The translations under genes and the position numbers were made by a program. From Bilabrum cf. latius (taxonomy: Eukaryota), in the NCBI GenBank assembly GCA_965178125.1, contig OZ237767.1, positions 248,001 through 312,000 on the forward strand: a stretch of DNA of 64,000 bases, read 5' to 3'. A model generated the notes under the pieces. The model searched no databases. It was not told where the DNA came from and saw nothing but the letters and a program-made list of their open reading frames with translations. This document shows, in pieces, positions 43,081-64,000 of the stretch (positions are counted from its first letter, which is position 1; every line of letters starts with the position of its first letter).

Positions 43081-43209
43081 GATGCTGAGTGAGTTGCAGC
43101 CGCCGGTCTGTATTTGTCCTTTAGTTGCGTGGATCTTCGCAGGAACCCTGGACTGCGTCGTGGCACGCATCGACTCGTGTGGCACGCACAACATTATTTA
43201 TTTTTAAGT

Positions 43210-46200
43210 ATGAGTGCGTTTGATGACGCGTTCGCGGGATTAAGTGAGATAGCTGCCTCATCCTACCACTCCTGTTGCAGGTCGTTCGTGCACTGAATGG
43301 CATTCCTACAGAACAACGCTTCAATCTGTTGGAGTCATACTGTACCGCAGATGATTCTGCGGGCAAGCCATCGCAGCGACCCGTAATGCGTGGTGTCGTG
43401 CAGCAAGCTCCAGCTGCCGCCGAGCAGCAGAAGCCAAGCATCGCTGGGCGAGATCCACTGCCAATCGAGATTCCTTCAATGTCGGCTAAAGAAATCAAGG
43501 CGTACCTGCGGAGGAAGAAAGTTGATTTCTCACAATGCTTGGAGAAGAAGGAATTCGTGGATTTGGCCGTGAAGGTCGCCACGGGCTCGCTCGGGCTGTC
43601 AGGATCTCTTCTCGCCGGAGGCACGTCGTCCACCGGCGCGGCCTCCAGCGCCGTTGCAGACGCACTCGCCGCAGTGGACGAATTCGAAATCGCGGGCATC
43701 AAGTCAAAGCCCGGCGAGAAAGGCGCAGCCGCAGCGGAGAGCGACCACGTCCGCCAGTTCGCGATCGGAGCACGCTCCGGGCCCAAGCTCGCCCAGTACA
43801 AGGCAGCGCAGGCGGCCACCTCCCTCTCCACCACCGCGGTGCCCCCCGCCCCTCCAAAACACCTCGGCTGCCCCATCCCCGCCGCGGCTCTCGCTCCTTG
43901 CCTGAGGGAAGTGCCCTTCCCGTACCTGAGCGCCTGCCACACGGAAGTGGCCCAGACTGCAGCGGAGATGCAGGCACGGGCGAGTGCTCGCGCGCAGCAG
44001 ACCGCGGCCGCACTTGCGGCAGCCACCTCCCACGCAGTTGCGCGCGCAGTGGCCGCAGCGGAGGCACAGACCGCGCACGAGGCCAAAGAGGCTGTCGAGC
44101 TCAGGCGCTCCCTCCTTCCCTACCGCAAATACCCCAAGGGCAGGGTCGGCCACCGCCGGGTGTTTGAGCTGAGGTTGCGACCGGACGTGGGTGCTGTGGA
44201 TGCACTCAACTCGATGGAGATGTCGGGTCGGGCCGCTGGATTCCGGGCGGTGCACGCCACCCGCCGATCTGTGCTGATGCAGCAGGTGGTGCAAGTGCCG
44301 GCAGCCACTCTTCGGGAGTACGTTGCTTTGGCTGAGAAAGAAGCTGCGGAGGCGAAGCTGGACGCAGAAAACGCAGCCAAGTAGACGGGCGATGGGGGAT
44401 CGTCTGGTGCGGAACATGCAGGACCGAAGCTTGCCACGGGTGCGGCGCCGGTTCCGCACAACCCGGTGCGGTTCACGGAAGCGGTGCAGTCGGTGGCCGA
44501 CAGGCTGGCAGACCGGCTCGGCGGCAGCGGAACCGGCGCCGCGCAATCATCCTACGTGAACTCGGTGACGGCGATGCTCGGCACGGATCCCGAGGGTCGC
44601 CGGTGCTGTTTCCTGCTGGCCGCGGCCTACACGGTGGACAAACCGGTTGACCTGCCGCAAGGCGTGCCGGTGGTGCGCAGGGCCAGACCCGGCGGCAAGA
44701 TGCTCAGAGTGTTCGATGACTGGGAGACAATGCAGGCCAAGGATGGCAGCGGAACCGGTACCGGCGCCGCGCAATCCGCCGGTGGGTCCGGCAGTGGGGC
44801 GGGCGGTGGTGATGGAGATGGTGATGATGACGACGACGACGACGCCGATTTTTCCGCGCTGCTCGGGTCGGAGGGGGGGGTGGCCATCGGGCCAAAGACA
44901 GCGGGGCAGACTGAGTGCTGCCTCGCTCCCGAGCTGCGCGGATTCGGAATCGCGTGCGACGTTGTTCCCCCGGAATCGGAGTCACTGGCGCGGGCCTCCC
45001 TGCCCAAGGTGAAGCCTGTGTTCCCTGAGAGCGTGCCAGGGGGCGCGCTGCCGCCGTGGGCTTGTCTCCGAGTGTCGGTCCTTCGGGCAACGGGGCTCGG
45101 CTCGGGGACTGCCGGATCGTCAGTCGGCGGGGTAGAGGATGAAATCGCGTCTCTCGGGTCGGGAGTGGCCAAAGGCGACGGATCCACGTCTGGATCTCCG
45201 GCCATGTACCGCCGGTTCAGGCTGGAGCGATGCTCCGACGAGCTCGTGCAGCAATGCTGCGCGATCGCAGCTGCCGCCCGATCGAGGAGGGGACCCCAGC
45301 GAGCGGCGGAGGGAAGCAGACAGGCACCTCTGGCGGGCGGATCATCGGGGCTCCGGGTCCTTGCTGAGGGTGCCTGGGCAGACGCGCTAGAGGTGGCCAA
45401 AGAGGAGGAGATGGGGCGGAGGGGTGAAACAGCCGGCCTCGCGTCGTCGTCTCCGGGTGCATCGCACGGTGGTGCGGGCTGGACACGCGGCGAGGTGGGT
45501 GATTTCCAGCTGCACGAGGAGTTTGAAGAGGACCTGGCCTCCCACACGCGAGCCAGGATGCAGAGGAGGCTGTATCGGCAGGCCACCGGCCCCGAGGCGC
45601 AGGCACGGCTGGACGAGTGGAGGGCGACGCAGGTCCGTTCTGCCCTTGCCGAGGCGGCCGGGGCATGCATGGTGACGCTAGAGGCAGACCAGCAGGTACC
45701 CACGCTGCAGGAGTATGCCCAAGCGGAGGAGGGGGCGAATGCAAGCGGTCCGGCTGGAGTCGCGGGGGTCCCAGGTTCGATTCCCAGCGTGGGCGAATTG
45801 GTACCCCCGGCGGAGGCCCGCCCAGAGAGCGAGTCGCGTCTCACGGCCGGGGAACAACTTGCGACCAAGGTGCTGCTGGATGCGTTCGCGCGTTGTGCTC
45901 GGCTCCAGGCCCAGGAGCGGGTCGCGCTGGTGACGCCGGCCCGCGCAGCCGACGAGGAGGAGTCCAAGCGGGCGGCGAGGCAGCGAAGGCACGTGAGCCT
46001 GAGGCGATCTGCAGCATTCCGTGCCTCTGTGGAGCGCGTTCGTGCGATGCAGCAGGTGGCAGCACCCAGGCAGTCCAACCTGCACGGATACCCCATGGCA
46101 AAACTAGCCGTTGAGTAGTTCGAGGTGCAGGACACTGCAGTGCTGTTCGGAACCACGGCCTCCGTGTCGGTGGCCTCCAGCGGGCACCTGCTGGTTACAA

Positions 46201-47489
46201 CCACCGAGGTTCTGCTGGCGTACTCTGCGCTGGGACTGGGCTTTGGCGGCATGAACAAGATTCGATTCCGGATCACGGACCTCTGCGGTGCGTTCCGCGC
46301 GCCATCGCAGGGTGAGCACGGAGTGGCCTTGGTGTACGTGGCAAGGGAGGGCCAGCGGTTCTCGGATGGGCCGGTTCCGCAGACCGTCCGCGGCGCCGCG
46401 CCAGCCGTGCAGCTGGGGTGGGCCGCGCTGGAGGATGAGGAGCGAGCCAGGCTGGCTGGGCTGGGCGGCATATCCGCCCTTGATGTTCTCTAGCTGAGCC
46501 TGGGAGGGAAGGCGGGCCAGCTGCTGCTTCTCCTCGCCCTGCTGCGGCAGGGGCTCAAAACACCGAGGACTGCCCTCCTTCCAGACAGCGACGAGGGGAG
46601 GCGGGCAAAGCTGCAGCAAGATGTGGCCAGACTGGTGGACGCAGAACGGGAGGAAGAAAATCGAAATCCAAGGTCGACCCAGGCGGCGGGCGAACCCGGT
46701 GCCAACGAGGGAAGGAAGGAGGAAGAGGAAGAGGAAGAGGACCTCTTTGCCGCGGCACCCGCAACCGGCTCCGCTGGACAATCGGCGGCGGTCGAGGCGG
46801 TACTATCCGCGGGTATGACGAGTGGGGGTGCGGCCGAGGACGGCCCACGCGCCGGAGAAGAACAAATCGACCTGTTCGGCCTGCTGGCCGCGAGCGAGAC
46901 CCGGCGAAGGGCAGCCGCATCGGGTGTCGGTGCTCGGGGGCAGCGCGCGGGGAGCAGCGGAACCGGCGCCGCGCAGAGCGGGCTCGATGAGGATGCGGAC
47001 GAGCTGGAGGACATTTTCAGCGGGATGCAGGCGCAGGCCGAAGCGCGCGGCGCCGGTTCCGCAGCCCCAGGTCTAGAGACAGGCGATGCTGAGGCCCCCC
47101 CAGCTCAGAGCGGAAGCGAATCGCGACCAGGACTCAGTGCTGAGGTACAAGAGAAGCTGGATGGCGGGATGTCGGTGTCGGCCATGCGGAAGGTACTCCG
47201 CTCGGCTGGCGTTGATGCCTCACGGAGGGGCGTGACAGAGAAGTCGGAGATGGTGTCGCTCGTGAGGTCGGTCCTCGCCGGTGAGGGCGAATTCGCGGGG
47301 TAGCAGCAGGCCAGGGCGGAAGCAGAGCTCCTGGGAAAGCCTGCCCCCCTCACGGGGTACAGTGGGGAGGGCCCCGGGACTATTTCCCGTGGAGGCAGCG
47401 GCGCTTCGTTGCGCAGCGACAGGGCAAGCTCTGCCAGCATGGCGCAGCAACCGCGTCCGGCCTCTGACGATCCGTTCGCGGGGTTGTAA
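43210..47489 (+). CDS. Large hypothetical protein with two MSxKEL..EKxE helical motifs, possible GRAM/PH-like segment and terminal DD(A/P)FAGL motifs
   Basis: ORFs 43275, 44466, 46125 and 46623 are in frame via TAGs; ends DDPFAGL-TAA at 47487-47489. First exon MSAFDDAFAGL. Motifs MSAKEIKAYL..CLEKKEFVDL and MSVSAMRKVL..TEKSEMVSL. Confidence 0.6.
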
Positions 47490-47728: not shown

Positions 47729-48550
47729 CCCCCCCCGCTACGGTAATAAATAAATTTATTCCCTTCGGTTAAGGATGATTAACATCATCAATAGTTCCAG
47801 TCCATCAGAGCTAAAGCTCTTCAGTCCGTTTCACTCCTTTTGTCGCTAGTCGCTCCAAAAGTCAAGGTAATCTCTATAAAAGATATAGTACAAAAAATGC
47901 TATTTATATAGTATATTATAACATTTCTTGTACCGGGGCTTTTGTTAGAAGGTCAAATGGGACTTTTGGTGTTTTAGTATAAAATAGTCCCTTCATTTTA
48001 GAAGGGTGATTATTTGACCTTCTAAAGTTCAATGTAAATTTATAAAATTAATTCAAGTTCAATCATTAATGAAGGTAAAGCAATAAAATTATATATTTAG
48101 AATGATTATCTAAGGGGTACCCCTTGAAATGGTAATTTAGGGCTAAATAGAATATTAAATATGATAATAATGGGTCATAATAGTATTTAATTTAAAAGAA
48201 TATATTGATAAATAATAAATATATGATATGAATGTATAAATATTAAAAAAAAAATGAAAATGAATATTGAAGTTGAAGTTCAGTATATCTTAGGAAATGT
48301 TGGTCTTTAAAAGTATATGTATAAATAAAAATGAATGTGAATATTCAAGTTCAGTATTAATTCTCATTACGTGGATCTCTCAAGTTTGTGAAGGTGTTAT
48401 GGGACTCTAGCCATTTTCTAGCCAAAAGTTCCATCACTTTATGGGACTCCATTATTCAACCTTCTAAACTACCTTCATTATACCCCCTTATCCTCGCTTA
48501 TACCTTCACAAATGGAACAAACGCGCTTTTATTTTTAAATTGTTATAGAG
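47729..48550. repeat. Non-coding terminal region of the virophage, probable left terminal inverted repeat
   Basis: ~820 bp without ORFs at the element edge; internal inverted repeats 47945-47958/48012-48025 and 48385-48395/48502-48512; palindrome 48112-48125. The partner TIR is not in the window. Confidence 0.5.
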
Positions 48551-48596
48551 CGTTTAAATTGACTTAAAAAATATATTTATTATAGGTATATACAGA

Positions 48597-49394
48597 ATGG
48601 AAGAATTCAAATGGGAAAATGGAACCTTGAAAGCTACACAACCAAAAGAATATTATGAACGAAATGGATTTTAGGTTAATTTTGAAGGGAAAACCTATCA
48701 TATAGCAATGGATAAAGATTATATAAGATGGTTTTTGAAGGACTATAAACCTTATGAAATAATAACAACATTCATAACAGATATGAGTGAAGTATTCAAT
48801 GGATAGGATAAATTTAATGAACCTTTGAATACTTGGGATGTTTCAAATGTTAAGGATATGAGTTTAATGTTTCAAAGTTGTAGAAGCTTTAATCAACCAT
48901 TGAGCAATTGGGATGTTTCTAAGGTTGAAAAAATGTCGTCTATGTTCTATTTTTGTTCTAAATTCAATCAATCATTGAACGATTGGAATGTTAGTAATGT
49001 TAGGGATATGAGTGGTATGTTTGGTTCTTGTTCAAGATTCAATCAACCATTGGGTAATTGGGATGTTTCTAACGTTGAATATATATCCTCTATGTTTAAT
49101 GGATGTTAGAACTTCAATCAACCATTGGATAATTGGGATGTTTCCAATGTCTAGAGTAAGTTTTAGATGTTAAAAGATTGTGAAAGTTTCAATCATTTAG
49201 AGAACGGTATTAAGGGTATAAGAATTGATTATTCTACAACATTGATACCGTTGTTAGAAAGACGAAAACATAAAACCATTAAAAAAACAAAGAAATATAG
49301 AGAGGAATTAATTGCTAAAGCGTGGCACCCTTCAAGATTAGATTGGGTATTGGATAACGAGGAGCGAGACGAGATAGAGGATAATTTTAATTAA
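48597..49394 (+). CDS. DUF285/BspA-type repeat protein, copy 1 (265 aa)
   Basis: FNQPLxNWDVSNVxxMxxMF repeats continue through TAGs at 48672, 48804, 49107, 49152 and 49164; TAA stop; C-terminal EELIAKAWHPSRL. Confidence 0.9.
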
Positions 49395-49483
49395 TAGAAT
49401 TTTAATAATATTAATGATTATTTAATATTATAGTGTGAGTTTAAAAAGGCTTAAATAATATATTTATTATAGGTATATACAGA

Positions 49484-50281
49484 ATGGAAGTTTTAAAATG
49501 GGAAAATGGAACCTTGAAAGCTACAAAACCAAAAGAATATTATTTTAGAAAAGATAATTATATTGTGAAATTTGAAGGTAAAACATATTACGTAGCTAAA
49601 GATACAGATTTTCTTCTTCACGCATTGTAGTTTTTGAAACCTGAATTATTAGTAACAACATTTATTACGAATATGTTAAACCTATTTGATAATATGATAA
49701 TTGAATCACCAATAAATTCATGGGATGTTTCAAATGTTAAAGATATGACCGATATGTTTTATGGGTGTCATTCGTTTAATCAACCTTTAAATAACTGGGA
49801 TGTTTCAAATGTTGAAGATATGGGCGGTATGTTTAATGAGTGTCATTCGTTTAACCAACCATTGAATAATTGGAATGTTTCAAATGTTGAAGATATGAGT
49901 GAAATGTTTAATGATTGCCATTCATTTAACCAACCATTGAATAATTGGAACGTTTCAAATGTTAAAGATATGTGCGGAATGTTTTATGATTGCCATTCAC
50001 TAAATCAACCTTTAAATAACTGGGATGTTTCAAATGTTGTAGATATGGAATGTATGTTTTCTAATTGTTTTAGTTTTAATCATTTGGAGAATGGAATTAA
50101 GGATGAACGAATTGATTATTCCACGACATTAATCCCATCATTAGAAGAGCGGAAAGATGAAACAATTGAACAAACTAAAAAAATCAAAGAAGAATTAATT
50201 TCTAGAGCGTGGCACCCTTCAAGATTAGATTGGGTATTGGATAACGAGGAGCGAGACGAGATAGAGGATAATTTTAATTAA
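49484..50281 (+). CDS. DUF285/BspA-type repeat protein, copy 2 (265 aa)
   Basis: Same repeats; N-terminus paralogous to copy 1 (MEVLKWENGTLKATKPKEYY); one TAG at 49628; TAA stop. Confidence 0.9.
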
Positions 50282-50322
50282 GTTTTATTATAATAATTAT
50301 TTTATTTTTAATTATTATAGAT

Positions 50323-50670
50323 ATGGTTTATATTGTATCATTAGCGTGGGGTAGTGAATGTTATCATACACACTGGGTTAAAAAGTTTAATAATAAGGAA
50401 GAAGCACAAAAGCTTTATACTGACACTTTAAAAGACCAAGCGAAGAGAGTTGTATGGAGTGATAATTGGAAAGAAGAATATAAAAAGGAAGCAGAAGGTC
50501 AAGTTGAAAGTTTTAATGATGACAACGGAACCGATTTCAAACTATTGAAAGAAGAAGAAATTGATAACCTTACTAATAGTGAATTAGAAGAGTATATAGA
50601 ATTATCGTTGATGTATGCTGAAGAATATGATGATTCAAATGAATGGTTTGATATTGAGTTTTTAGAATAA
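50323..50670 (+). CDS. Acidic hypothetical viral protein (115 aa)
   Basis: Clean ATG-TAA ORF with AT-rich upstream region. Confidence 0.75.
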   Translation: MVYIVSLAWGSECYHTHWVKKFNNKEEAQKLYTDTLKDQAKRVVWSDNWKEEYKKEAEGQVESFNDDNGTDFKLLKEEEIDNLTNSELEEYIELSLMYAEEYDDSNEWFDIEFLE

Positions 50671-50896
50671 ATTTTTGAATTTTAATAATACTATTATTAT
50701 TATTATTAATATATAGTTTAATCCTTGGGTAAGATAAAGTCATCTATAGCCTTTTTGATGATGTCATCCTTCTATTTCTTTATTGATTTCTCAATGGCTT
50801 CCTTCTCTTTTTTAACCAATAAATCTATGGCTACGGTATCATTTAAGTCTTCACTTAGGTATTCAACATTTTCTTCATTTAGCTTATGTATTATTC

Positions 50897-52515
50897 TGAT
50901 CCTAACGCCGGATGGGGTTCGGTGTTGATGCCAGAGTGGGAGCGCGTGAACGTCTCGTTGGGTTCCGATGGCGGTTGCGACCGGGAAGGTGCGACCAAGC
51001 CAACGGATTGCTTGCGATGACGCGCATACCCTCTCTGTGTTCAGGAGAGGGGCGGAGATTGGGTAATTTTTGCGCTCTCGAGATTCGCAGTCTTCTTAGG
51101 GGAATGTTCGCCTCTCAGTGGCGGCACCATCGCTACATACACCAGAAATGCCTAGCGAGTCGTCATCGAGTCCACAGGAGCGTGCGGCGTCCCACGGTCA
51201 CGCTAGCTCGACAGCATCCTCCGGTACTACCACAAAGCATCGCCATCGGCGCACCCGTTGCGTCGATCTTCAGCCCCACTCCGCGCAATCCGACGGTGTT
51301 TCTCGACAGCCGGTTGCAGCACAACAGAGTAGGCTGCTCGGACAGCTGTCTGTCTCTGCTTCTGTGGGGGCCTCCGGCTGGGAGAGCTCGTCGGTGCGTC
51401 CAGACGACAAGCCGGCCTCCAATGGCAGCAAGTGCAGTTCATCACGCGAGACGGACGCATCCATGGTGTTGCCATCCGCCTGGGCCTCCACAAAGCCGAC
51501 GGCCCAGCCAAGTTCTCCATCCCAGCCGCAGAGCCCATCGCAGTCCATTGCAGAGCCGGACGATGGGCAGTCACAGGCAGCAGGTTCTGCGGCGTGCGAG
51601 CCTTCGTGGCGTGGGCAGCAGCGAGCCACGCCCCAACTGCAGGCGCAGACGAAGACTACGCCCGGTAGCTGGCGCTCAGCTGCCCCACGTCAGGGCCAGT
51701 CTTCGTGGCGAACACGAAGCCGATCGTCAAGGCGCAGGTAGTACGGGCGCTCCGCAGCTTCTGCTCACGAGAAGTTGCAGGAGCGGTGCACGGACATTCC
51801 ATCCGCATCGCGGCAGTGATGTGTTTGGACCGTGCTGGGGTCGCCTTCGAGGTCATTAGGCGATTTGGCAGATGGAAGTCGGCATCTGCATGCGAGGTGT
51901 ACTTGCGGGGCGTCAGGGAAGGCTTGCCTCCTCTGGAGCTCGGCGGCAGGAGCCTCGATTTGAACAGGCCAGTGTGGGTGCTGGCCAGCGCGCTGCGGCT
52001 GAACTTGGAGTGAGCCACACAGCCGCAGCGTACAAGACATGGCGGTAAGATTTGGCGGAGTAGTGCACGTGCTCTTCCCAGCCCCGGTCAGTCCGGTCAA
52101 GGGTCGCGCACAGGCACAGCTTTGTCAGGTCTTGCCATGTCTGATTGTTAACGAGACTAGGTTGCGCGTACACTCTGGCATCATGATCCTAACGCCGGAT
52201 GGGGTTCGGTGTTGATGCCAGAGTGGGAGCGCGTGAACGTCTCGTTGGGTTCCGATGGCGGTTGCGACCGGGAAGGTGCGACCAAGCCAACGGATTGCTT
52301 GCGATGACGCGCATACCCTCTCTGTGTTCAGGAGAGGGGCGGAGATTGGGTAATTTTTGCCCACCCTCCCAACCCCCTCCTCCTCGGCGGAGTAGTGCAC
52401 GTGCTCTTCCCAGCCCCGGTCAGTCCGGTCAAGGGTCGCGCACAGGCACAGCTTTGTCAGGTCTTGCCATGTCTGATTGTTAACGAGACTAGGTTGCGCG
52501 TACACTCTGGCATCA
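50897..52515 (+). mobile_element. Internally deleted Ngaro-type tyrosine-recombinase retrotransposon with split direct repeats A1-[YR]-B1-A2-B2
   Basis: GC-rich island. A1 50897-51073 = A2 52184-52360 (177 bp); B1 52054-52183 = B2 52386-52515 (130 bp); YR ORF in between; no target-site duplication. Confidence 0.92.
51063..52013 (+). CDS. Tyrosine recombinase of the Ngaro element (5'-truncated, no in-frame ATG)
   Basis: With TAG read-through (51153, 51204, 51330, 51666): RFAVFL..LSGGTIATY, FCGGLRLGEL (Arg I), LHKAD (Lys), GHSIRIAA (HxxR), FGRWKS (Trp), EVYLR (Tyr); TGA at 52011-52013. Confidence 0.88.
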
Positions 52516-52854
52516 TAAATGGTTGAACGAAATATGATATATAGTCAATTTCTTCAAATTCACTTAATACTCTTTTTTTAAGTCGTTCATTACAATCTGG
52601 AGGGACACGAAGGTCATCAAGTTGAAAATGCTTTAACATTGATGGTTTGTGCTTCTCAACATAAATATATACGATTGACATAAAAGTGGAGATGCTTTTA
52701 TTCTTGAGTACCTTTTTAACGTTGACACTTGATAACAGGAACTTAACGAACATATTATAATGTAGCCCAATATTTTATTTTGATTTATTAAACCCGTTTT
52801 ATAAAATTCTATAGTTTAAAAAAAATATAAAAAATATCTAGTAATTATATATAA

Positions 52855-53226
52855 ATGGATAAATTACAAAAAGTGATTAATACCCGCTCAAAGTTAAAGA
52901 ATGAATTTCTTGATATTGTAGAAGACTTTAAGAAGACCAATCGTGAATTAGAACAAAAGTTAAAGCAACTAAAAATAAAAGAGACAGAATTAAAAAATAA
53001 AGTGAATAGTAAATTAACCGCTCTTAATGTGGAATATAAAGAGGTGAGCAAAAAGAAAGCAGAAGCTATAGCCCCTTATATGAAAACTTTAAAAGCATTA
53101 AAAGGAAGGATGACTGGATTGACAAAGAAAGACAAGGACAAGCTGATTGACGTTCATCAAGAGATAAGGAAAATTAAAGAATAGATTAAAGTAAATGAAG
53201 CTATTAATAGGCTTTTTAATTCGTGA
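52855..53226 (+). CDS. Lys-rich coiled-coil viral protein (123 aa)
   Basis: ATG 52855, one TAG at 53182, TGA at 53224-53226; heptad-like K/E/L pattern. Confidence 0.75.
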
Positions 53227-53266
53227 ATAATTAATTTATAAATATTAAAATCAATTAATATACATA

Positions 53267-54424
53267 ATGAGTAAGAGAGGAAAGAAAAAAGATAATGATA
53301 TTAATGAGTCAAGTTTTGGATTTAATACGAAGTCTATCACGAACGATTTAATGAAGCCGATAAAGAAACCGAAAGGATTGAATTATGTTAAATATTATAA
53401 ACCTACTAAAGAGGGGCTTATCCAATAGGCTGATTTATTGTATCTCCCTTACGCTACCAAGAACGATTCAAAATATTTATTAGTTGTGATAGATACGAGC
53501 GGGTTAGCGTTAGATTTTGAAGAGTTAAAGGATAGAGGGGCGGAGGATGTGATAAAAGCTTTTCAAAAAATCTATAAAAGAAATTATTTAATGAAACCTA
53601 AAATGATACGAACAGATAAAGGGGGAGAATTTGATAATGAATTATTTAAAGAATATCTAAAGAAGAATAAGATAGAGCATATATTTTCAAGAGTGAAGCG
53701 TAAATCGTAGATGGCTTTAGTGGAGAGATTGAATGAGGAAATAGGGAGAGCTATATTTTATTATTTGAATTCATAGGAGATAAGAACGGGGACAACTATC
53801 ACGAACTGGAGACATTTAATACCAAAATTGAGGGAGATATTAAACGAGCGTTATAAAACAAGATAGGAAATGTTGAATAAGAAAAGGGAGAATCTACCAT
53901 ATATACCGCCTAGATGTTAGGGTGAAGTATGTGATGTATTAAATGAGGGTGAAATGGTAAGAATAGGATTAGATTATCCTAGAAGTATAGAAGGGATAAA
54001 GGAAACCGGAGCATTTAGGGCGGGAGATATTAAATATAGCGTAAAGCCTTATAAAATTGAAAGAGTAATAATAAAACCAGATAACCCCCCATTATATAAA
54101 ATTGAGGGCATACCCTATACATACTTTAATAGAGATTAGTTGTTATTAGCATCTAAACCATACGAGAATAAAGCACAAGATATATTTATAATTGAAAAAT
54201 TGATAAGAAAGAATAAAAATAATACATACAGGGTTAAATGGAAAGATTCATATGTTGATGAGGCTACTAAAAGAAAATATTAGAATGATATAGGTAAAAT
54301 AATAAAGAGAAGAAAGAATCAAGAGGGACAAGATGAATATTTAATTCAATGGAAGATAACAACGGAGCCGGCTAAAAATATATCAAAAACTCTAAAGGAT
54401 AATTTTAATAATAAGACTAAATAA
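53267..54424 (+). CDS. Retroviral-type (rve, DDE) integrase with C-terminal chromodomain (385 aa)
   Basis: Q*ADL (D1), YLLVVID, RTDKGGEF (D2), *MALVERLN (E); FRAGDIKYS..PDNPPLY; chromo-like FIIEKLI..YRVKWK..YLIQWK..TEPAKNI. 7 in-frame TAGs; TAA at 54422-54424. Confidence 0.93.
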
Positions 54425-54453
54425 ATATTATTAATTTATATTTTAATAATATT
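54424..54453. terminator. AT-rich hairpin between convergent viral genes (candidate 3'-end signal)
   Basis: Perfect 11-bp inverted repeat AATATTATTAA (54424-54434) / TTAATAATATT (54443-54453). Confidence 0.5.
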
Positions 54454-54460
54454 CAAATAA

Positions 54461-55078
54461 TTACACTCTGTAGGTCATATTATAGACTGACATAACCATC
54501 TATGAAAGCCCTTCAAACGTATTATACACGCTATACTCATTAGGGTTAAAACTTTTCAAAAATTCAGCTCGTGAATGTCTTGCTACATCCTTATCTTCAT
54601 TATCTAAATCTTTATGGATTTTGCTATACAGTTTATCGCTGGGTATAGCTACGCATATGCTGGATTTTTTGAATATTTCTTGTGCTAGTTCAAAATCACT
54701 TGTTAAAAAGACTGCTCTATGTTCTGCTTTCTATAACCAATTTTTCTTTACAGACTCAATACTTTTTTTCATAAGTTCAAATTTTAATAATTTAGCCGTT
54801 GATAAGTCCCCTCTTCGTTCTGCTTCGTTTAGGTATAAAACCTGTTTGGTGTCAGCATTAACTTTAAGGACTTCATCTAAATCAACTAATAGAATATTCG
54901 GGTCTATAGACGTTAAACTTTTGTTAAGTGAACTTTTACCTCCTTTTCGTGGAAGGACTAAACACAATTTTTTACGATTCGCAAGTGAGGAACATAAGTT
55001 CCAAAGGAAGCATCCCGCATATCCTAGAGGAACCAACACCCCACCAACCGTGCTTGCTGTTGCTACTAACTCTGCCAT
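54461..55078 (-). CDS. Small P-loop NTPase/kinase-like viral protein (205 aa)
   Basis: LCLVLPRKGGKSSL (atypical Walker A), ILLVDLDE; 2 in-frame TAGs; TAA at 54461-54463. Confidence 0.65.
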
Positions 55079-55123
55079 TATATATATCTATACAAAACAA
55101 AATATTATTATCCTATAGACTAA

Positions 55124-57193
55124 TTATTTTAATAATCTTAGTTTTTCAAAGTGTTGATATAAGATTTGTTTTACCTTGTCCTTCACATTATGATTACCTT
55201 TACCACCGGCTACATTAAAATATTCTTGTTCAATTTGTCCTCCTTTATGCTTGCCACATCCACAACTACCGCCCCTGTTCTATGTTTTTATTTTCTAATC
55301 AATAATTAAATTAATAGCTTTCATTAACATATTATAAGGGTCTTTATTTCCGAAACCTTGAGCTGGTGGTGAATATGTCCATATAGGTATTCCATCCATT
55401 TGATAACCGTTATCAGTAAGAATACTTTTTGCTTGTCTACTAACTGCTCTTGTATCTCTTCCTTCTGTATTTGCTCTGGCTACTAAATCAGCGATTCTCT
55501 CAGGTGGTAGATTAGGTTGTAATACTCCGGCTTTAAGCCTTCGTACAATATATTTTAATGTAGTTGCGGTTTTTGATTCTACTGGATTTATTCCAGCTTT
55601 TTGTAATTGTGATAATATCTATTCCTTAGTTGAACCTGTTTTTACATTTATTGATTGTCCTATTGATTTGGCTATTTCATCATCTGTTTTCTGTGGTTCT
55701 TCTGGTTCTTGTGGTTCTGCTGGTTCTGCTGGTTGTGCTTGTTCTACGGCTTCTCCATCTCTTGGTTCTTCATCTGGGGCTCCCCTCCGTTCTCTAGCTT
55801 GTCTTTCTTTTTCTTCTTGTTGTCTTTGTGCTTCATCTCGTTCTGCCTGTGCTTGTCTTTGTCTGAATTGAACTTCTGTAAGTTGTCTTCCAAATTCATC
55901 TGTAATAGGTTCTCCATCTTCATCTACTGCCATCGCTTCACCTTTTCCTCTGTCTTGACCTGCGGGGGGTGCTTGTGGTTGTGAGCCTGTTTTTCCTGTT
56001 AAATAACTGATACCATCCATAACCGATTGTCCTAAAGAACCAAATGTGCTTTGTTGTTGTTCTGGTGATTGTCCTTGTTCTTGTTCTGGTGATTGTCCTT
56101 GTGGTGCTGGTGATGCTTGTAAGAATCCACTAGGTGGAACTGGTGCGGGTGATACTTTTGAAAACTAGCCTGATAAATTTCTACTGGCGTTCTCCCCTTC
56201 TTCTTCTTGTCCTGATGATTGTGATGCCTCTTGTTCTTGTGCTTTTTGTTTAAGTTCTGATAATTTCTTCTAAGCACTTTTTATAAAATCAACTTTAGAC
56301 CGTCCTTTTACACCTTTAACATTTGACTATCTAAGTATTGATGCTAGTTCGGTTTTCTTTGGTGCTTTTCTACTACTTGAAGGATTGGCGTTTGCTACTC
56401 TTTCAAGTGCTTCAATTTGTTCTTGTAGTTCTGGGCTTAATGCTTCTTGTGGTGTTGGAGGGGGTTTTGGTCTTGGTTCTGGTGGCGGTTGCGGGTTATC
56501 TGGTTCAGGTCTATCAGGTTGCGGGTCATCTCTTTGCTATTGTTGAACGGCTTCAGGAGGATTTAAAACATCCTATAAAGCATTAACAGCGTCATCAACT
56601 TTTGTTAATTGTGAAACATTCTATCCTTGGGGGGTTTTCGTGATTCCAGCTTGTCGTAAAGCGTTTCGTATTTGAACTGCTTTTAATCCTCTCATATCGC
56701 TTGGTAATTGTTCTAATACTGCGTCCCGTTGTGCTTTGGTGGTTGTGAATAATCTCATATTAATATTTTTAATTCCATCAAATACCTTTTTCTTATCGCT
56801 TGCTGGTCCTACTACCTACCTTACATTAATATTATTAATGGTATCTACAACCTATCTTTTTAATTTATCCGGTAAATCTGGATTTCTATTTATAAATGAT
56901 TGTAAATTTTCTATTTGATAAATTGGTAATTCTTTTTTAGCGTTCATAGTCTTAATATTTTTAATAATATTTTCAATTCCTTGTTGTTGTTGTTGTCTTT
57001 CAATTCTAACATCAATAGGAACATAATTAGCACGAAGAAAAGCATCATCTTTTAGGGTTTTTCTTCTGGCTTCTGCTTCATCTTCTTCTTGCTATATCAT
57101 TAATCTAACTTGTGGGTCATTTTGTATCCTAAGTTGATTAGACCGTTTCTACATAATACCCTTCAGTAAATCATTAATTGTATTGTTTGACAT
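55124..57193 (-). CDS. Large Gln/Pro/Glu-rich viral protein (689 aa), possible core/structural precursor
   Basis: Continuous frame from ATG 57193 to TAA 55124-55126 with >10 TAGs and no TAA/TGA; includes track ORF 55619-56020; C-terminal GG motifs (RGG, KGG, AGG). Confidence 0.8.
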
Positions 57194-57270
57194 TGTATAT
57201 ATATATTATTAATGATATAATTAATAATTTATAAACTTAAGAGATAATATGTCAATTGGTAGGCTGTCTT

Positions 57271-57639
57271 TTAAAATGAAATATCCTTATTCATAAGGTC
57301 GTGTTTCTTTATAAAAGCATTGCTGGCTTTCATAGTCATTCCCTTTTGACGGCACCATTTCATTAATTTATCCCTCTTTAACTATTTAGCACTACGGGGC
57401 TTTTTTGTTTTAGGGGCTTTCTTTGAACCCTTCTTTTTTCCTCCAGCGAGAACGTTCGGCTATCCACCAAGAAAGTTTACAGCTCCCCCTGTTGTCTTTC
57501 CTTTTGTGGTTGCGTTTAATATTTGGTTTGCGGTATCTTCAACCATTTTATCAATTTCTTTTTTATAATCATTTCTGTTTATTCCAAGATGATGAAGGCT
57601 TTTATTTGTCATATCATTTATGCTCTATTTAACGCTCAT
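57271..57639 (-). CDS. Small basic viral protein (122 aa), putative DNA-binding core protein
   Basis: ATG 57639 to TAA 57271 with 3 TAGs. TGG/LGG/AGG motifs precede KKKGSKKAPKTKKPRSAK and RDKLMKWCRQKGMTMKASNAFIKKHDL. Absent from the ORF track. Confidence 0.75.
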
Positions 57640-57696
57640 ATTATTGTATATATTGGGTATATATAATTTGTTATTTATCCATACTTATAATATATA

Positions 57697-58512
57697 ATGA
57701 AAATTAATGAATTGACACAAGCTTATTTTAATGAATACGAGAACGATATATTTGATGAGGTGAATTTTAAGAAGGGGGCTAATTTATTTTTAAATGGTTC
57801 GTATGCTATTCCTTATTATTCCTTGTTTGCTAGTGATATAGATTTATATTAGAGGGTAGAGCCTGAATTTATAAATAGTTTAATAAGATTTGTAAAGGTT
57901 TTTATAAGTTAGGTTAATTTTATTGAGGTTAAAGCTGGTAATAAAAAATACAAGACCATAAAAGCATTCATATCTACACCCGTTAAAACCATTTATAAAT
58001 AGATATTTAGCGGAGATAAACCATACTTAAAAATTGATTTTTGGGCTTTTGATGGAAAATTTATTGATGAAATAAGCATAATTTATCATATAAGTGATTA
58101 TGAAATAGATTAGGACGAGGTAAAAGATGGATTAATAAGAGATGTAGATAAATATTTTGGTTCTAATAATTTTAAAGTATTAAAACGATTGAAGGATTTA
58201 TTTAAATTAAGAGGTGAGAAGAGGAATGAAAAAAGAGTCAATGATTTAATTGATAGGGAAGCATTAGGATATTTATATTCCATAAGAATGCGATTAGAAA
58301 GTATGCTAAGAATAAAAGGACATCAAAGAGAGAAGTCAAAATCATTTCAAAGCCTAAAAGGACTAATGAGAAAAGCATTAGGAAATGTGGAAATAATAAA
58401 ACAATTTTCAAAGTATTCTAAAGCAAATATTAATAAGATAATATCGTGGATTGACCAATACATAAATAGGAAAACACGGGCGGAAATTAAAAATATAATT
58501 ATGTCTCTATAA
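57697..58512 (+). CDS. Pol-beta-superfamily nucleotidyltransferase-like protein (271 aa)
   Basis: LNGSY..FASDIDL (hGS..DxD) and later YLKIDF; frame open through several TAGs into ORF 58189-58512; TAA stop. Confidence 0.7.
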
Positions 58513-58604
58513 CTTTTTTTGTGAGGAAGGATAGAAGAAGGAACCAACTTAATATTTTAAACCCGTATAAATGAATGGTTTATTTTATTTTATTATTATA
58601 TATA

Positions 58605-59675
58605 ATGCTATCTTTACAATATACGGAAAATAGCCATATTGTAGCTATTCAAAAATATAAAAAAACACAATAGAACCGGTTTATTTATTACGACCCGAAC
58701 GCTAAAGATATTCAACACGTCAAAGCGGAAGAGATAACAGATGATGTTTTAAAATCTTATTACGGAGAAAGCCGAGTAAGATATAACGTTGATAAGGACA
58801 AGAAAAGGGAACAATTACATAAACTATTACAAGATGAATATATACGGTCAGTTTAGGAATTTGCGATTAAAGATAATAGTCAATATTTACCTTTTCCTAT
58901 GCTCTTTCCATAGGGGCGTGAATATGTGCGATTATTTGGTAAGAGTGGAAGCGGGAAAAGTCATTTAGCTTTACATTATATAAGGATGTATAGAGGATTA
59001 AAATATAAAAATATGTATGTTATATCACCAATTCAAGACCCTAAATATAAAAGAGAAGGCGCGACCTTCATTGATATAGATGATTTGGTTAAAGAGAATG
59101 AAAACACTTTATATAAGGAAAAAATGGCTTATTATAAAAAAATGAAATTAGAATTTAAATATAAAAAATCTTCTTTGATGAAATCTAAACCTTTAGATGT
59201 TGTTATTGAAGCTGAAAGAAAGATAGAGGATTTGAAACCTGAGAAAGATTTAATAGAAAAAGGTTTTAAATTAAATGTTGAGTTTTTTAAAAAATTGACC
59301 GCTGAACCTAATTTATTTATTCTGGATGATTACGAAGGCTTTAAAAAAAGGAACCAGAAAGCAAAGGCTTATTTTTTATTGGAAATCCTAGCAACTACAG
59401 GAAGGCACACAGCAAGTAGCGTTTTAGACATCACCCACAAAATAAGCGACGGTATGAAGACACGAACCATTATGAACGAAATTACAACCCATATCATTTA
59501 TAAAACAATTACAGCTAAAAGTTTAAAATATATTTTAGAAACAGTCTTAAGTTTTGACGCTCCTACTAGAAAACGAATTAAAAAAACCCTTCATTCTCTC
59601 CCTCTCTTTGGTTATGTTGCTATTAATGTTGATAATAATTATGTAGTTAGCACAAAAAAAATATTTCTCTATTGA
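58605..59675 (+). CDS. FtsK/HerA-type virion DNA-packaging ATPase (356 aa)
   Basis: Walker A GKSGSGKS, Walker B LFILDD, TGRH motif; N-terminal 107 codons (MLSLQY..) contain 3 TAGs; TGA stop. Confidence 0.92.
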
Positions 59676-59683
59676 ATATATAA

Positions 59684-60259
59684 ATGAACATAAACGACTT
59701 AAATAGACTAGTCCAAACACCGTTATCTCCTTTAGAAATTCAAAAATTAGGTGTAGCACATTTGAATTACAAACCTAGAATAGTTATTTACGATGATATT
59801 ATTAAATAGACCTCATCTATTGAACATATTTTTGATGGTTATGACGGCGTAATTATTTATTATCCTAATAAAAAGACGGGACTAAATAGCACATACGGTC
59901 ATTTCATTTCATTGACCAGAAAACCATCAAGCAAAATAATATACTTCTTTGATAGCTATGGAGAAAAACCCGACCAATAGAAACCATTTATTAATAGAGA
60001 CCAATTGTATCAAGGAGAAGGAGAAGAAAATACGCTGGTAAAGTATTTAATTGATTAGAAAATGGAAGGTTGGAAAATTGATTATAATCATAAACCGATT
60101 TAGAGTTATGCTAACAACAGCGCTACGTGTGGAAGATGGGCTCTATTAAGAAACGCTTTTTCTTTCTTATCAAATGATTAGTTTGTAAATGAAATGTTTA
60201 GAATATCCAAAATTATGGCTCTTAGTCCTGATTAGTTAGTGGCGTTGCTTCTACATTGA
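59684..60259 (+). CDS. Adenain/Ulp1-like virion maturation cysteine protease (191 aa)
   Basis: YGHF (His), YFFDSYG (Asp), YNHKPI*S (Gln position = TAG 60101), ATCGRW (Cys). 6 TAGs; TGA at 60257-60259. Absent from the ORF track. Confidence 0.93.
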
Positions 60260-60595
60260 ATACTCCGACCATCTAATAAAAGGGCTAGAATAAAATAATA
60301 AAATATGATTATCTCTAAAATAAAATCCATACGATGGCTATATCCACAAATTGCGTATATATTATAGTGTTTTCTAGCAAAACGTGGATGTAGGGCCTCT
60401 TGTGAAGGTGAAATGAAGATATAAGCCCTTTTATTTAGAAAAGTTCCATCGTTTTAGAAGGGCAATTTTTCATCCATCTAAATTCAATCAAACTTTTAAA
60501 TATATTGGTAAAAGTGAAGGGTAAAAATCAAGATGAAATATTAGATAAGGTTTATTAATAAATATTTATTTGTATAGCTTTAATATATAAATAAA

Positions 60596-61549
60596 ATGAG
60601 TTATAGCGATGAATTTGTAAGATTGAATTTAGTTAGTTCATCTGTCCCCCACAATTAGACGAGATAGGCGGTAGTGAATGAAACCCGTGAAGGCTTAATA
60701 TTAAAACAAAGTGAAAATTATTTAACGGCTGTTGAAGAGATGGATTTAAATAAATTTATGCTACCGGTGTTTAAACCTGAATATTAGGATGACAGCGGTA
60801 AAACCTATTTAAAATTTACTCTTGAGAATAAAACATCAGGAGCCAGAGCAGGCGATTATATAGTTCTAGGTAAAAAAGCTAAATTTTATTATTCATATTA
60901 GGATATTGTAAATGAATTTAATGAAGAGTTAAGCCGAATTTGTGATTTGGTAAGCCTTCCAAGTGGTGATAAACCAGTCTTTAAATTTGAAAATAATAAA
61001 TGGAGTTTATCAACAACTGAAGATTTTAGAGATAATTATTATTTATTTGTTAATTTTGAAGCTTTTGCTTTATTTGATAAATTTGAATATGAAGGAATAA
61101 CAACCACACCGAGTGATTTATTTGCTAAACTTTCATATAATAATTCCCCTGCTAGTGGTGATTATGTTTTTATGGCTAGATAGACGAATTTAAATTCTTG
61201 GTGCCCTGTTAAATCTATTATCGTAGAAAGTGATATTCCAGTGAATAAAGAATTGGTGACCACAAAATCATCTACTGGTGGCTCTATAGCCGTCAATAAA
61301 TCCCCTATATTAACCAGCTACCCGTATAATCCTAATGACAGCTCACCAATAGAAAATATATTATATGTTTCTAATCCTTACCGCTGGTATTCAATGATGA
61401 AGGATAGAAGCTTTAAGAGCGTGTCAATGGCGTTCTACTGGGTTGATAAACAAAATGAAAAGTATCCCGTAATGAATTTTAACGGGGGTGAAGCTCACAT
61501 TAAACAAGTATTTAAAAAACAAACCGATAATTTAAGTTTAGATTTTTAA
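60596..61549 (+). CDS. Minor capsid (penton) protein (317 aa)
   Basis: NETREGLIL..YLTAV..LPVFKP, WCPVKSIIVESDIPV, YRWYSM..FYWVDK..KQVFKK resemble virophage pentons; located between protease and MCP; joined via TAGs; TAA stop. Confidence 0.85.
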
Positions 61550-61620
61550 ATAAATTATAGAAGATTATAAAATATGTTTAGATATTAAAAAATTTATATC
61601 TATAGTGTATATATAAAAAA

Positions 61621-63510
61621 ATGGCTCAACAAATGGTTCAGAATTTACCAGTAAGCATTAAGGCTCCTAAAAGCCTTCAAATGATAACCCCTGAAGATGC
61701 TAGTTTAGGAACAGAACTAGGTGTTCAAAAATATACCCGCCGAGAAATTAGACCATCATCTAATCAATCTAATTCTCTTCTTCCCCTTTCTTTCCCCGTT
61801 AATCCTACTAGTAAAACCGTATCAAGGTTTATTCGTCTTCGTCATCGTATGACAGTTAGGCTACAACTAGAGCAAGCAGTACCAGCTCAAACTGCGGGAG
61901 GTGATGCTATTACCGCTCAATCTTATCTTAAATCTAGGTTTGGAACTAATTCATTACCTACCTTTAAAATGCTTCAAGGTGGTGTTTTAACAATTAATGG
62001 ATAGCCTTTTACAGTAAAAGTTTATGAATGGGCTGAACCTACTGAAGTTATGAACAGTGAAGAAACCTTATCCACAATCTCACCCGTTGGACGCCCTGAC
62101 ACTGTTGGTGATTATCGTGAAGTAAGTGATACCCTTAAAAATCCTTTAGCTTGGGGTTAGGATGTTGGATATAGTGCCGGTGATAGCTTTAGTTATCGTG
62201 GAGCATATGGGAATGCTTTTACGACTGTAAGTGCTGATTTCGTTGCGGGTAATAGAGACCAAATTGATTGGACTATTGATTTTCAAGAAGCTATACCACT
62301 AAAAGGAGCAGATGTTGATGTGAATGCTAAGTATTTTACCGGTGTAAGAAGCCTTCAAGTTGATTTAGATTATCACGTAAATGCTATTCAAAGACTGTGT
62401 AAGGCTAGTCTTACAAAAGATAACGGAGATATTAATAAAATAACGGCTTAGTCAATTATAGGAGAAACAAATACGACCCTTCTTGTTGATGAAGTTGAAT
62501 TTTAGAGTGGATACGCCCCCCCGACTCGTTGTATGTATAATATGCCTACAATTAAATTTTAGTCTTAGGCTCCTATCCCTGTAGCTAAATCCGCGACTGA
62601 AAATTCTTTAACTTCTTTTGATTATCAATTATCCCGTGAGAATGGTATCCCTAGTGCTATTATGGTATGTGCCCGCCTTGTTGGTTGTGATGATAACCCT
62701 AACTGGGCTAATAGAACTTTACCAATTAGAAGAATAGGTTTCTCACTCAATGGAAGTGCTGAGGAATTAGGGGCTGTAGATAATCCACACGAATTATATA
62801 GAATTAGTAGAAAGAACGGATATGCTCTTCCTCCTTCATCCTTTTATGGTTCATCAATTGATGGAAGTGATGGAAACCGCGGTACTGGTTGCTATATGAT
62901 TTTAAAACCTTCAGATGTTGCTACACTTGCTGGTGTTCAATCTAATGTAAATACTGGATTTAATCTTAAAGTTAATCTTCAGTGCTTCAACCCTTATAAT
63001 AAATATGCGGATGGTGCGAATGAGGATAAATACGAGATAAAAGTATGGATGTTTTATGATAATGTTCTTGTGAATGATAACGGTGTCTATACTGAGGCTG
63101 GTGCCCTTATTGAGCCTTCCAAAGTGCTTTCTGAACTTGCTAAACGTGGTGATGCTGAAAGTGGTTCTAAAGGTTTCTAGCCTGTATTTGAGGATTTAGA
63201 TAATTATGCTAATGTTATGGGTGGAAAAGGTCGTTTCTGGTCTAAGATTGGACGAGCCTTTAAACACGGATGGAACAAGGTTAAAGATTGGGCAAAAAGT
63301 GATTAGGCTAAAAACCTAGCTAAACAAATTAGGAATATAGGACCACTCAAAAGTCTAACAGGAAACAATACCGCTCTTGGCAAAGCGGCGGCACATTATG
63401 GATATGGAAATAGTGGAGGAGAATTGAATAAGCTTGGTGGAAAACTTACGATGCGTGGTGGCTAGGCTATGCGTGGAGAAGATCTCGAGGCCCTTTTAAG
63501 CACATCTTAA
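61621..63510 (+). CDS. Major capsid protein (629 aa) with cleavable C-terminal extension
   Basis: Frame open from ATG 61621 to TAA 63508-63510 with 9 TAGs. LTING, IPSAIMV, LPIRRIGFSLNG..ELYRISRKNG..YMILKPSD motifs; VMGG followed by amphipathic tail. Confidence 0.9.
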
Positions 63511-63557
63511 ACGTTTAAAATGACTTAAATATATATTAACTAACTAATATATATCAA

Positions 63558-63848
63558 ATGGAAAAGTTAAATAAAATTATTGAGAATCTACCGCCTACAC
63601 ACGATGTCTATATCCAGACAGAAATTGATGGAGTTTTGACCGTAATTTTTACAAATAGTGATTAGGTAAAAGAAATCACCAATCAATTAAAAAAAGACAG
63701 TAGAGAGGAGCTATTATATCTCAAATATTCAACCTATAAATGTATTATATAGACGAGGAATAAGTATAGAGATGATGACATTTTACTTCATTATTTGGCT
63801 GTTTGTCTATTAGAAAAGAAACCCATTCAATTACATAAGGCAAGATAA
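63558..63848 (+). CDS. Hypothetical viral protein (96 aa)
   Basis: ATG after TATATA motif; 2 TAGs; TAA stop. Confidence 0.65.
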
Positions 63849-63900
63849 TCATTTTATTATTTATTTATACATATTAAATAAATATATGACCTGTGAATGA

Positions 63901-64000
63901 TACTTTCCGAAGTTGGTTCACACTTTCCGAAGTTGGTTCACACTTTTCAAAGTAGGTTCACACTTTCCGAAGTTGGTTCATACTTTTCAAAGTAGGTTCA
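63901..64000. repeat. 20-bp tandem repeat array (at least 5 units, truncated by window end)
   Basis: Units YACTTTCCGAAGTTGGTTCA and YACTTTTCAAAGTAGGTTCA in the order A-A-B-A-B. Confidence 0.95.

Follow-up and report, generated by a model that had tools for sequence, protein, structure and literature searches.

TAG at the predicted oxyanion-hole glutamine of the protease of an integrated Sputnik-like virophage

The putative viral maturation protease gene in the window (the whole stretch of 64,000 nucleotides analysed here) raises a question of decoding. Its reading frame is crossed by TAG six times, and one of these codons lies shortly before the predicted catalytic Cys, where the oxyanion-hole Gln of such proteases would be expected. 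Which amino acid is specified by TAG in this gene, and is TAG read in the same way by the genome around it? Our reading, to which we assign a probability of about 0.9, is that the gene encodes a clan CE maturation protease of the working type, that it belongs to an integrated Sputnik-like virophage, and that in the host UAG is read as Gln, with UAA and UGA retained as stop codons. The coordinates of the features are collected in Table 1.

With TAG translated as Gln, the protease frame yielded a protein of 191 residues (P0001), which starts with the ATG at 59684, eight bases after the stop codon of the upstream gene, and ends with the TGA at 60257–60259. When the frame was read by table 11, it was interrupted by six TAG codons (codons 42, 99, 125, 140, 166 and 184), and neither TAA nor TGA was found in frame. 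The protein carries the motifs G72-H73-F74, F89-D90-S-Y-G and YNHKPI-TAG-SYANNSAT-C149-GRW. The position of the frame, these motifs and the TAG at 60101–60103, which is codon 140, were all present as the initial annotation had described them, and its count of the Gln codons of this gene (six TAG, five CAA and no CAG) was exact. It had also regarded TAG as a preferred Gln codon. This was true of the protease gene (TAG is 6/11 of its Gln codons), but not of the AT-rich element in which the gene lies, where 56 TAG stand against 123 CAA and 5 CAG.

Table 1. Positions of the protease gene, its TAG and predicted catalytic codons, and the neighbouring genes in the window
Feature	Position	Strand	Remarks
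Virophage maturation cysteine protease gene, predicted clan CE, Sputnik-V9-like	59684..60259	+	191 codons, 6 TAG, TGA stop
TAG codon 140, near-invariant Gln column, predicted oxyanion-hole Gln	60101..60103	+	nine residues N-terminal of the predicted catalytic Cys
CAT, predicted catalytic His73	59900..59902	+	H in 126/126 homologs
GAT, predicted catalytic Asp90	59951..59953	+	D in 122/126; pairs with adenain Glu71
TGT, predicted nucleophile Cys149	60128..60130	+	C in 126/126; pairs with adenain Cys122
TAG codon 42	59807..59809	+	column gappy, variable
TAG codon 99	59978..59980	+	column E 44, Q 25 (n=126)
TAG codon 125	60056..60058	+	variable column
TAG codon 166	60179..60181	+	column E 50, Q 32 (n=126)
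TAG codon 184	60233..60235	+	column E 56, D 18, K 10, Q 8 (n=126)
AT-rich (~30% GC) integrated virophage-like element beside 60% GC host DNA	47750..64000	.	left border approximate; window ends within element
Packaging ATPase gene directly 5' of protease	58575..59675	+	GKSGSGKS Walker A; 3 TAG; TGA stop
Penton (minor capsid) gene	60596..61549	+	Pfam V18-19 of Sputnik match; 5 TAG
Major capsid protein (MCP) gene	61621..63510	+	9 TAG; weak match to Sputnik major capsid C-terminal domain
rve-type integrase gene, chromodomain-like C-terminus	53267..54424	+	7 TAG; 3 on Gln columns
DUF285 (BspA-like repeat) genes, tandem paralogs, left end of element	48597-49394 and 49484-50281		

A HMMER scan of 1.84 billion representative proteins with the protease gave 1174 matches with E ≤ 1e-3, of which 141 reached E ≤ 1e-10. 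Alignment A1 (128 rows) was composed of the query, its relative P0002 (85% identical) and 126 of the best 150 of the 1174 matches; the other 24 rows were omitted by length (≤167 or ≥213 residues) before any column was inspected. Column counts were taken over the 126 homologs, with the query and P0002 excluded. In the column of TAG140, Q was found in 124 homologs, H in one and E in one; some database homologs may themselves be coded with TAG and automatically translated as Q, P0002 being a candidate. Among the 24 omitted rows, 20 reach the site of codon 140 and all have Q there, and four stop short of it. The columns of His73 and Cys149 in A1 were invariant and that of Asp90 nearly so, 109 of the 128 rows had a spacing of nine residues from Gln to Cys, and the consensus was ...GHW...FFDSYG..PD...GY.I.YN....Q.....IATCGRW.... 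The order His73, Asp90, Gln140, Cys149 with TAG on a conserved Gln column, as proposed in the initial annotation, was thus borne out by the counts.

Searched against PDB sequences, the A1 profile gave weak matches only (E 0.009 to 0.05), to clan CE proteins. In the weak match to adenain of human adenovirus 2 (1avp, E = 0.021), H73, D90, Q140 and C149 were paired with His54, Glu71, Gln115 and Cys122, the adenain residue numbers being counted along the printed profile alignment. A review of adenovirus maturation places Cys122, His54 and Glu71 of the adenovirus protease at the positions of papain Cys25, His159 and Asn175, and aligns Gln115 with papain Gln19, a presumed participant in the oxyanion hole (PMC4246237). 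Because the column of codon 140 aligns to adenain Gln115, which corresponds to papain Gln19, the oxyanion-Gln reading of TAG140 is supported. The initial annotation had allowed that an alignment might place the oxyanion Gln at another position or give another consensus at the TAG column; the column was Q in nearly all homologs and was the one that paired with Gln115. By this homology at the level of sequence, residue 140 is probably the oxyanion-hole Gln. The Gln of codon 140 would form the oxyanion hole together with the backbone amide of Cys149, and His73 and Asp90 would complete the catalytic set. The protease and adenain have the same order of His, acidic residue, Gln and Cys. They differ in the third catalytic residue, which is Asp here and Glu in adenain, and in the spacing from Gln to Cys, which is nine here and seven in adenain; the similarity between the two sequences is weak, with 14% identity in the structural alignment.

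The AlphaFold2 model of the protease built from A1 had a mean pLDDT of 95.3. In the Foldseek search of BFVD, Sputnik V9 (B4YNE9) was at rank 2 (E = 8.1e-13, TM 0.82/0.89, rmsd 1.9 Å) with 27% identity over 189 columns. The initial annotation had proposed modelling of the active site; the model of the protein predicted a clan CE fold close to that of V9. In the PDB, Foldseek gave 47 matches with E ≤ 1e-3; OtDUB, SENP5, adenain and Ulp1 headed the list, and the ASFV pS273R and monkeypox I7L proteases were also among the leading matches. By VIA-align, the model was matched to OtDUB (6ups, Z 12.2, rmsd 3.3, 147 aligned), the adenovirus 8 protease (4wx4, Z 11.6, rmsd 3.3, 146 aligned), ASFV pS273R (6ljb, Z 11.2, rmsd 3.5, 140 aligned) and the adenovirus 2 protease (1nln, Z 11.0, rmsd 3.3, 145 aligned), and all 50 of the matches listed were clan CE-type enzymes. 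The clan CE fold is common to adenain, Ulp1 and ASFV pS273R.

The Pfam scan of the protease gave no family match, Peptidase_C5 included, and among the 128 members of the family there were weak matches to Peptidase_C5 (7), C48 (5) and C57 (6). Because the Pfam families do not match, the protease was placed at the level of the clan, in a virophage-specific family that Pfam does not model. In a phmmer search of PDB sequences with the protease, the only matches were to an amidohydrolase and to lysostaphin; their E values (0.09 to 0.65) are at chance level, and these candidates were dropped. By its modelled fold, the protein is predicted to be a Sputnik-V9-like clan CE cysteine protease. Within the clan CE proteases of virophages it is unremarkable, and it adds one more member to a family already known. 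Sputnik V9, among its closest structural matches, has 175 residues compared with 191 here. Unlike V9, the gene in the window uses TAG for most of its Gln codons, including that of the active site, and under the standard code it would stop at codon 42.

The GC content of the window is ∼60% from position 1 to ∼47,700 and falls to ∼30% from ∼47,750 onwards. The genes of this AT-rich part are, from left to right, two DUF285 genes, the integrase, a 689-residue protein on the other strand, the ATPase, the protease, the penton and the MCP. A study of the mavirus protease MVP describes a four-gene morphogenesis module of virophages, consisting of MCP, penton, clan CE protease and FtsK/HerA ATPase (Born et al. 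2018, PMC6048507). The same module occurs in the window in the order ATPase, protease, penton, MCP, and the order protease, penton, MCP was also found in IMG/VR relatives when the window proteins were compared by tblastn with eleven protease-homolog loci. We read the element as a Sputnik-like virophage that has integrated into the genome of a GC-rich eukaryote; besides the protease model, the neighbouring penton matches Sputnik V18-19. A word search for homologs of the MCP and a tblastn search of a phage collection with the protease each gave no match.

TAG behaved as a sense codon throughout the element. In ten element ORFs, TAG was found 56 times in frame, and TAA and TGA not once. In the two off-frames of the same ORFs, TAA was counted 147 and 242 times, TGA 73 and 180 times, and TAG 84 and 70 times. 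Decay or sequencing error cannot give this pattern of in-frame and off-frame stops. TAA terminates eight of the ten genes and TGA the other two, TAG terminates none, and TAG makes up 30% (56/184) of the Gln codons. The integrase offered further columns: it had 17 database relatives, 14 of which were aligned; the entry for the window itself and a relative at 75% were excluded from the counts. TAG54 (53426–53428) corresponded to Q in 13/14 homologs, TAG148 (53708–53710) in 12/14 and TAG291 (54137–54139) in 14/14. The initial annotation had taken TAG140 as the most direct assignment of TAG in the window; this has to be withdrawn, the three integrase codons being equally direct. Because four columns are near-invariant for Gln (protease 140; integrase 54, 148 and 291), the assignment of TAG to Gln is clear, and Gln is presumably inserted at TAG in vivo. 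The DUF285 repeats were uninformative as an internal test, all eight conserved glutamines of their FNQPL motif being CAA and all six TAG lying at variable positions.

The GC-rich host part of the window was consistent with the same code. Nine long host ORFs contained 61 TAG, 82 CAA and 330 CAG and no in-frame TAA or TGA, and ended in TGA (8) or TAA (1) and never in TAG. The tabulation of viral against host Gln codons that had been called for in the initial annotation thus gave a TAG share of 13% (61/473) in the host compared with 30% in the element; CAG is plentiful in the host ORFs and nearly absent from the AT-rich element. In neither set did TAG serve as a terminator, TAA and TGA being the sole terminators in this small sample of ten element and nine host ORFs. 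The host ORF for an arginyl-tRNA-protein transferase was aligned with human ATE1 over three segments, which are colinear and share one frame (residues 57–135, 482–530 and 859–975), the first of which crosses TAG126; six further TAG lie between the segments. Because this ORF aligns through TAG126, the host very probably reads TAG as sense. Because host genes also carry in-frame TAG, the element conforms to the code of its host, in which UAG is Gln and the stops are UAA and UGA. No tRNA gene was found by ARAGORN in the 64-kb window, and decoding of TAG would rely on a host tRNA. A host ORF with a PARP domain had no match among PDB sequences, so that no host TAG column was obtained from it. In the GC-rich part, the frames 43121–47014 (−) and 43275–47489 (+) are both open for more than 1200 codons with TAG as Gln. 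With antisense strands open in this way, ORF length alone is weak evidence of coding in GC-rich host DNA.

Relatives of the protease were looked for in sequence databases and public runs. A word-based homolog search with the protease gave only two close relatives. Two database relatives, P0003 and P0004, stop immediately short of codon 99, which is TAG in the window. P0003 is of metagenomic origin and is 70% identical over residues 2–98; in it, the N-terminus of the protease is in frame with the end of a domain of the undecaprenyl-pyrophosphate-synthase type (PF01255). P0003 may therefore have another gene upstream and derive from a gene call under the standard code that was cut at TAG. Neither IMG/VR nor the JGI metagenomes yielded a close relative. 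A search with a 12-row protease alignment identified eleven virophage-like IMG/VR loci, in all of which the standard code leaves the protease gene open and the codon-140 column is CAA or CAG; this illustrates the usage of standard-code relatives and is not an independent count, because CAA or CAG was required there by the search pattern. Four of these eleven protease genes end in TAG. Another DNA pattern of fixed spacing (DY, 5 codons, TAG, 7 codons, TCGR) was found in six stretches of IMG/VR, all of them in closed frames, and these were discarded as chance matches.

In public runs, contigs from two organisms shared with the 4.9-kb module a fraction of 0.86 to 0.88 of its sampled words, and contigs from a lake-water metagenome were ∼88% alike to it. 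In the ATPase and MCP frames, 27 of the 40 listed differences from public-run contigs were at third codon positions (423 further differences stand beside those listed). The concentration of differences on third positions points to purifying selection on the encoded proteins. The listed public runs with the module include no RNA run on record.

Three other explanations of the TAG codons were weighed. TAG might be a sense codon for a different amino acid, most plausibly Glu, with Leu, Tyr and Lys as further candidates. UAR is known to encode Glu in peritrich ciliates and Blastocrithidia, and at columns 99, 166 and 184 of the protease, which are variable, the homologs have Glu more often than Gln; Lys is found at codon 42 in P0003 and P0004, and Glu at codon 166 in P0002. 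Gln/Glu interchange is common at exposed variable sites, so these variable columns do not separate Gln from Glu. With Glu exceeding Gln there, the Gln assignment rests on the near-invariant columns of the protease and the integrase, which speak against any other amino acid and make such a code very unlikely. UAG might also be incompletely reassigned, with context-dependent readthrough or a suppressor tRNA of a helper giant virus, and full translation would then occur only in co-infection. In its favour, giant viruses often encode tRNAs, the window contains no tRNA gene, and no helper virus was encountered. The 61 TAG of the nine host ORFs, the alignment of the host ATE1 ORF to its human homolog through TAG126 and the absence of a terminal TAG from all 19 ORFs argue against it. 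In-frame TAG in host ORFs and no TAG stops fit a constitutive reassignment at the level of the host, and partial reassignment is very unlikely.

Alternatively, the element might be a decayed relic, in which the TAGs are premature stops that arose, for example, by C-to-T decay of CAG in methylated DNA. TAG is indeed common in the element where CAG is almost absent (5/184 Gln codons), and the GC-rich insertion of 1.6 kb inside the element suggests a long residence in the genome. Against this stand the ten ORFs with not one in-frame TAA or TGA, compared with 147 to 242 off-frame TAA, the full length of every ORF, the high confidence of the protease model (pLDDT 95), the bias of differences towards third codon positions, and the host genes, which are rich in CAG and nevertheless contain in-frame TAG. 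A relic was judged to be extremely unlikely. The reading retained is that of a functional-type virophage protease gene in a genome that decodes UAG as Gln.

Viral elements in a non-standard nuclear code have a precedent. In Streblomastix strix, according to Bellas et al. (2023, PMC10120064), endogenous viral elements of the polinton-like type are written in the code of their host, in which TAA and TAG are Gln. As far as these elements are described there, they have in common with the present one that DNA viruses of the virophage and polinton-like realm are integrated in a host with a non-standard code. They differ in that only TAG is reassigned here, TAA ending 8 of the 10 element genes, and in that the present element is a Sputnik-like virophage with penton, MCP and protease, compared with a polinton-like virus of the Metamonada group in Streblomastix strix. 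In the literature searched, no virophage with a reassigned stop codon was found apart from the polinton-like elements of Streblomastix, and supplements may list more. The code with UAG as Gln and UAA kept as stop was first described in Iotanema spirale, according to Panek et al. (2017, PMC5304391). As in the code described for that species, TAG is here a sense codon on Gln columns and TAA and TGA are the sole terminators (19 ORFs); the present host has 60% GC. We take the Iotanema spirale code to be the same reading as NCBI table 15.

By homology, the protease would be made late in infection and would process capsid proteins. Its activity and substrates may be approached through the mavirus protease, for which cleavage of the C-terminal domain of the MCP at GG/X and GX/G (the slash marks the cut) is described in the relevant sections of PMC6048507. 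In the 629-residue MCP encoded next to the present protease, GG is found at 534, 599, 606 and 613 and GYG at 594; four of the six Gly-Gly pairs of the protein, and the GYG, thus sit in its last 96 residues. The tail therefore contains motifs of the GG/X and GYG types, as read from its sequence only, and by analogy with mavirus these are likely cleavage sites. In the proposed scheme, the protease would trim the C-terminal tail of the MCP at the Gly-Gly sites during maturation of the particle. Codon 615 of the MCP (63463–63465), directly after the last Gly-Gly (RGG/Q), is TAG.

A TAG at the oxyanion-hole Gln would be a clean marker, based on mechanism, that the element and by extension its host read UAG as Gln. 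Together with the three integrase columns, TAG140 allowed the codon to be assigned without a transcriptome. The noteworthy part is the context, namely a Sputnik-like virophage whose genes, even at the catalytic residues, are written in a code with UAG = Gln and UAA/UGA = stop that the host shares. Gene callers that apply the standard code cut the protease at codon 42 or 99. Because such callers truncate genes, as in the two relatives ending before codon 99, public catalogues probably under-annotate virophages whose hosts use other codes.

The position of the TAG codons also bears on where the element can be expressed. With TAG at catalytic and near-invariant sites of the protease and the integrase, no expression is expected in a cell with the standard code, in which the protease would stop at codon 42, and the element offers a case from nature in which the genetic code restricts the cells that can express a mobile virus. 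A further step, to which we give slightly less than an even chance, is that host, giant virus and virophage form a three-way system wholly in the UAG = Gln code, in which the code acts as a firewall that confines the virophage and the helper giant virus is yet to be discovered. If so, the virophage lineage would have used TAG long enough for it to occupy catalytic and near-invariant positions. If the element is active, a giant virus replicating in a UAG = Gln host should exist. According to the passages of a 2026 catalogue that deal with host codes, confirmed giant-virus isolates all come from standard-code hosts and none from hosts with a non-standard code, and one metagenomic giant-virus genome is annotated better under code 6 (PMC13524828).

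Several other features of the element were observed. A block of ∼1.6 kb at ∼60% GC (50897–52516) lies inside the 30% GC element. It contains exact direct repeats of 177 nt (50897–51073 and 52184–52360) and 131 nt (52054–52184 and 52386–52516) as well as 34-nt inverted repeats, and its 378-codon ORF (50912–52048) had no Pfam match. In appearance, the block is a repeat or transposon of host type that has entered the virophage DNA. The 689-residue protein (55124–57193, −) is of low complexity and has a high content of Gln, Pro and Glu; its gene contains 65 CAA, 13 TAG and 2 CAG codons, and the protein gave no family match except a sub-threshold one to PASTA. About 370 nt 3' of the MCP stop, at 63882–63981, the 20-nt unit ACTTTCCGAAGTTGGTTCAC is repeated in four to five tandem copies, and this array could represent the element's terminal region. 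A 54-nt intergenic motif, with copies 72% alike, occurs at the left edge of the element (47973–48026) and in the gap between protease and penton (60429–60482), and a similar stretch was seen at ∼48380–48470; this motif could be a promoter or a regulatory repeat.
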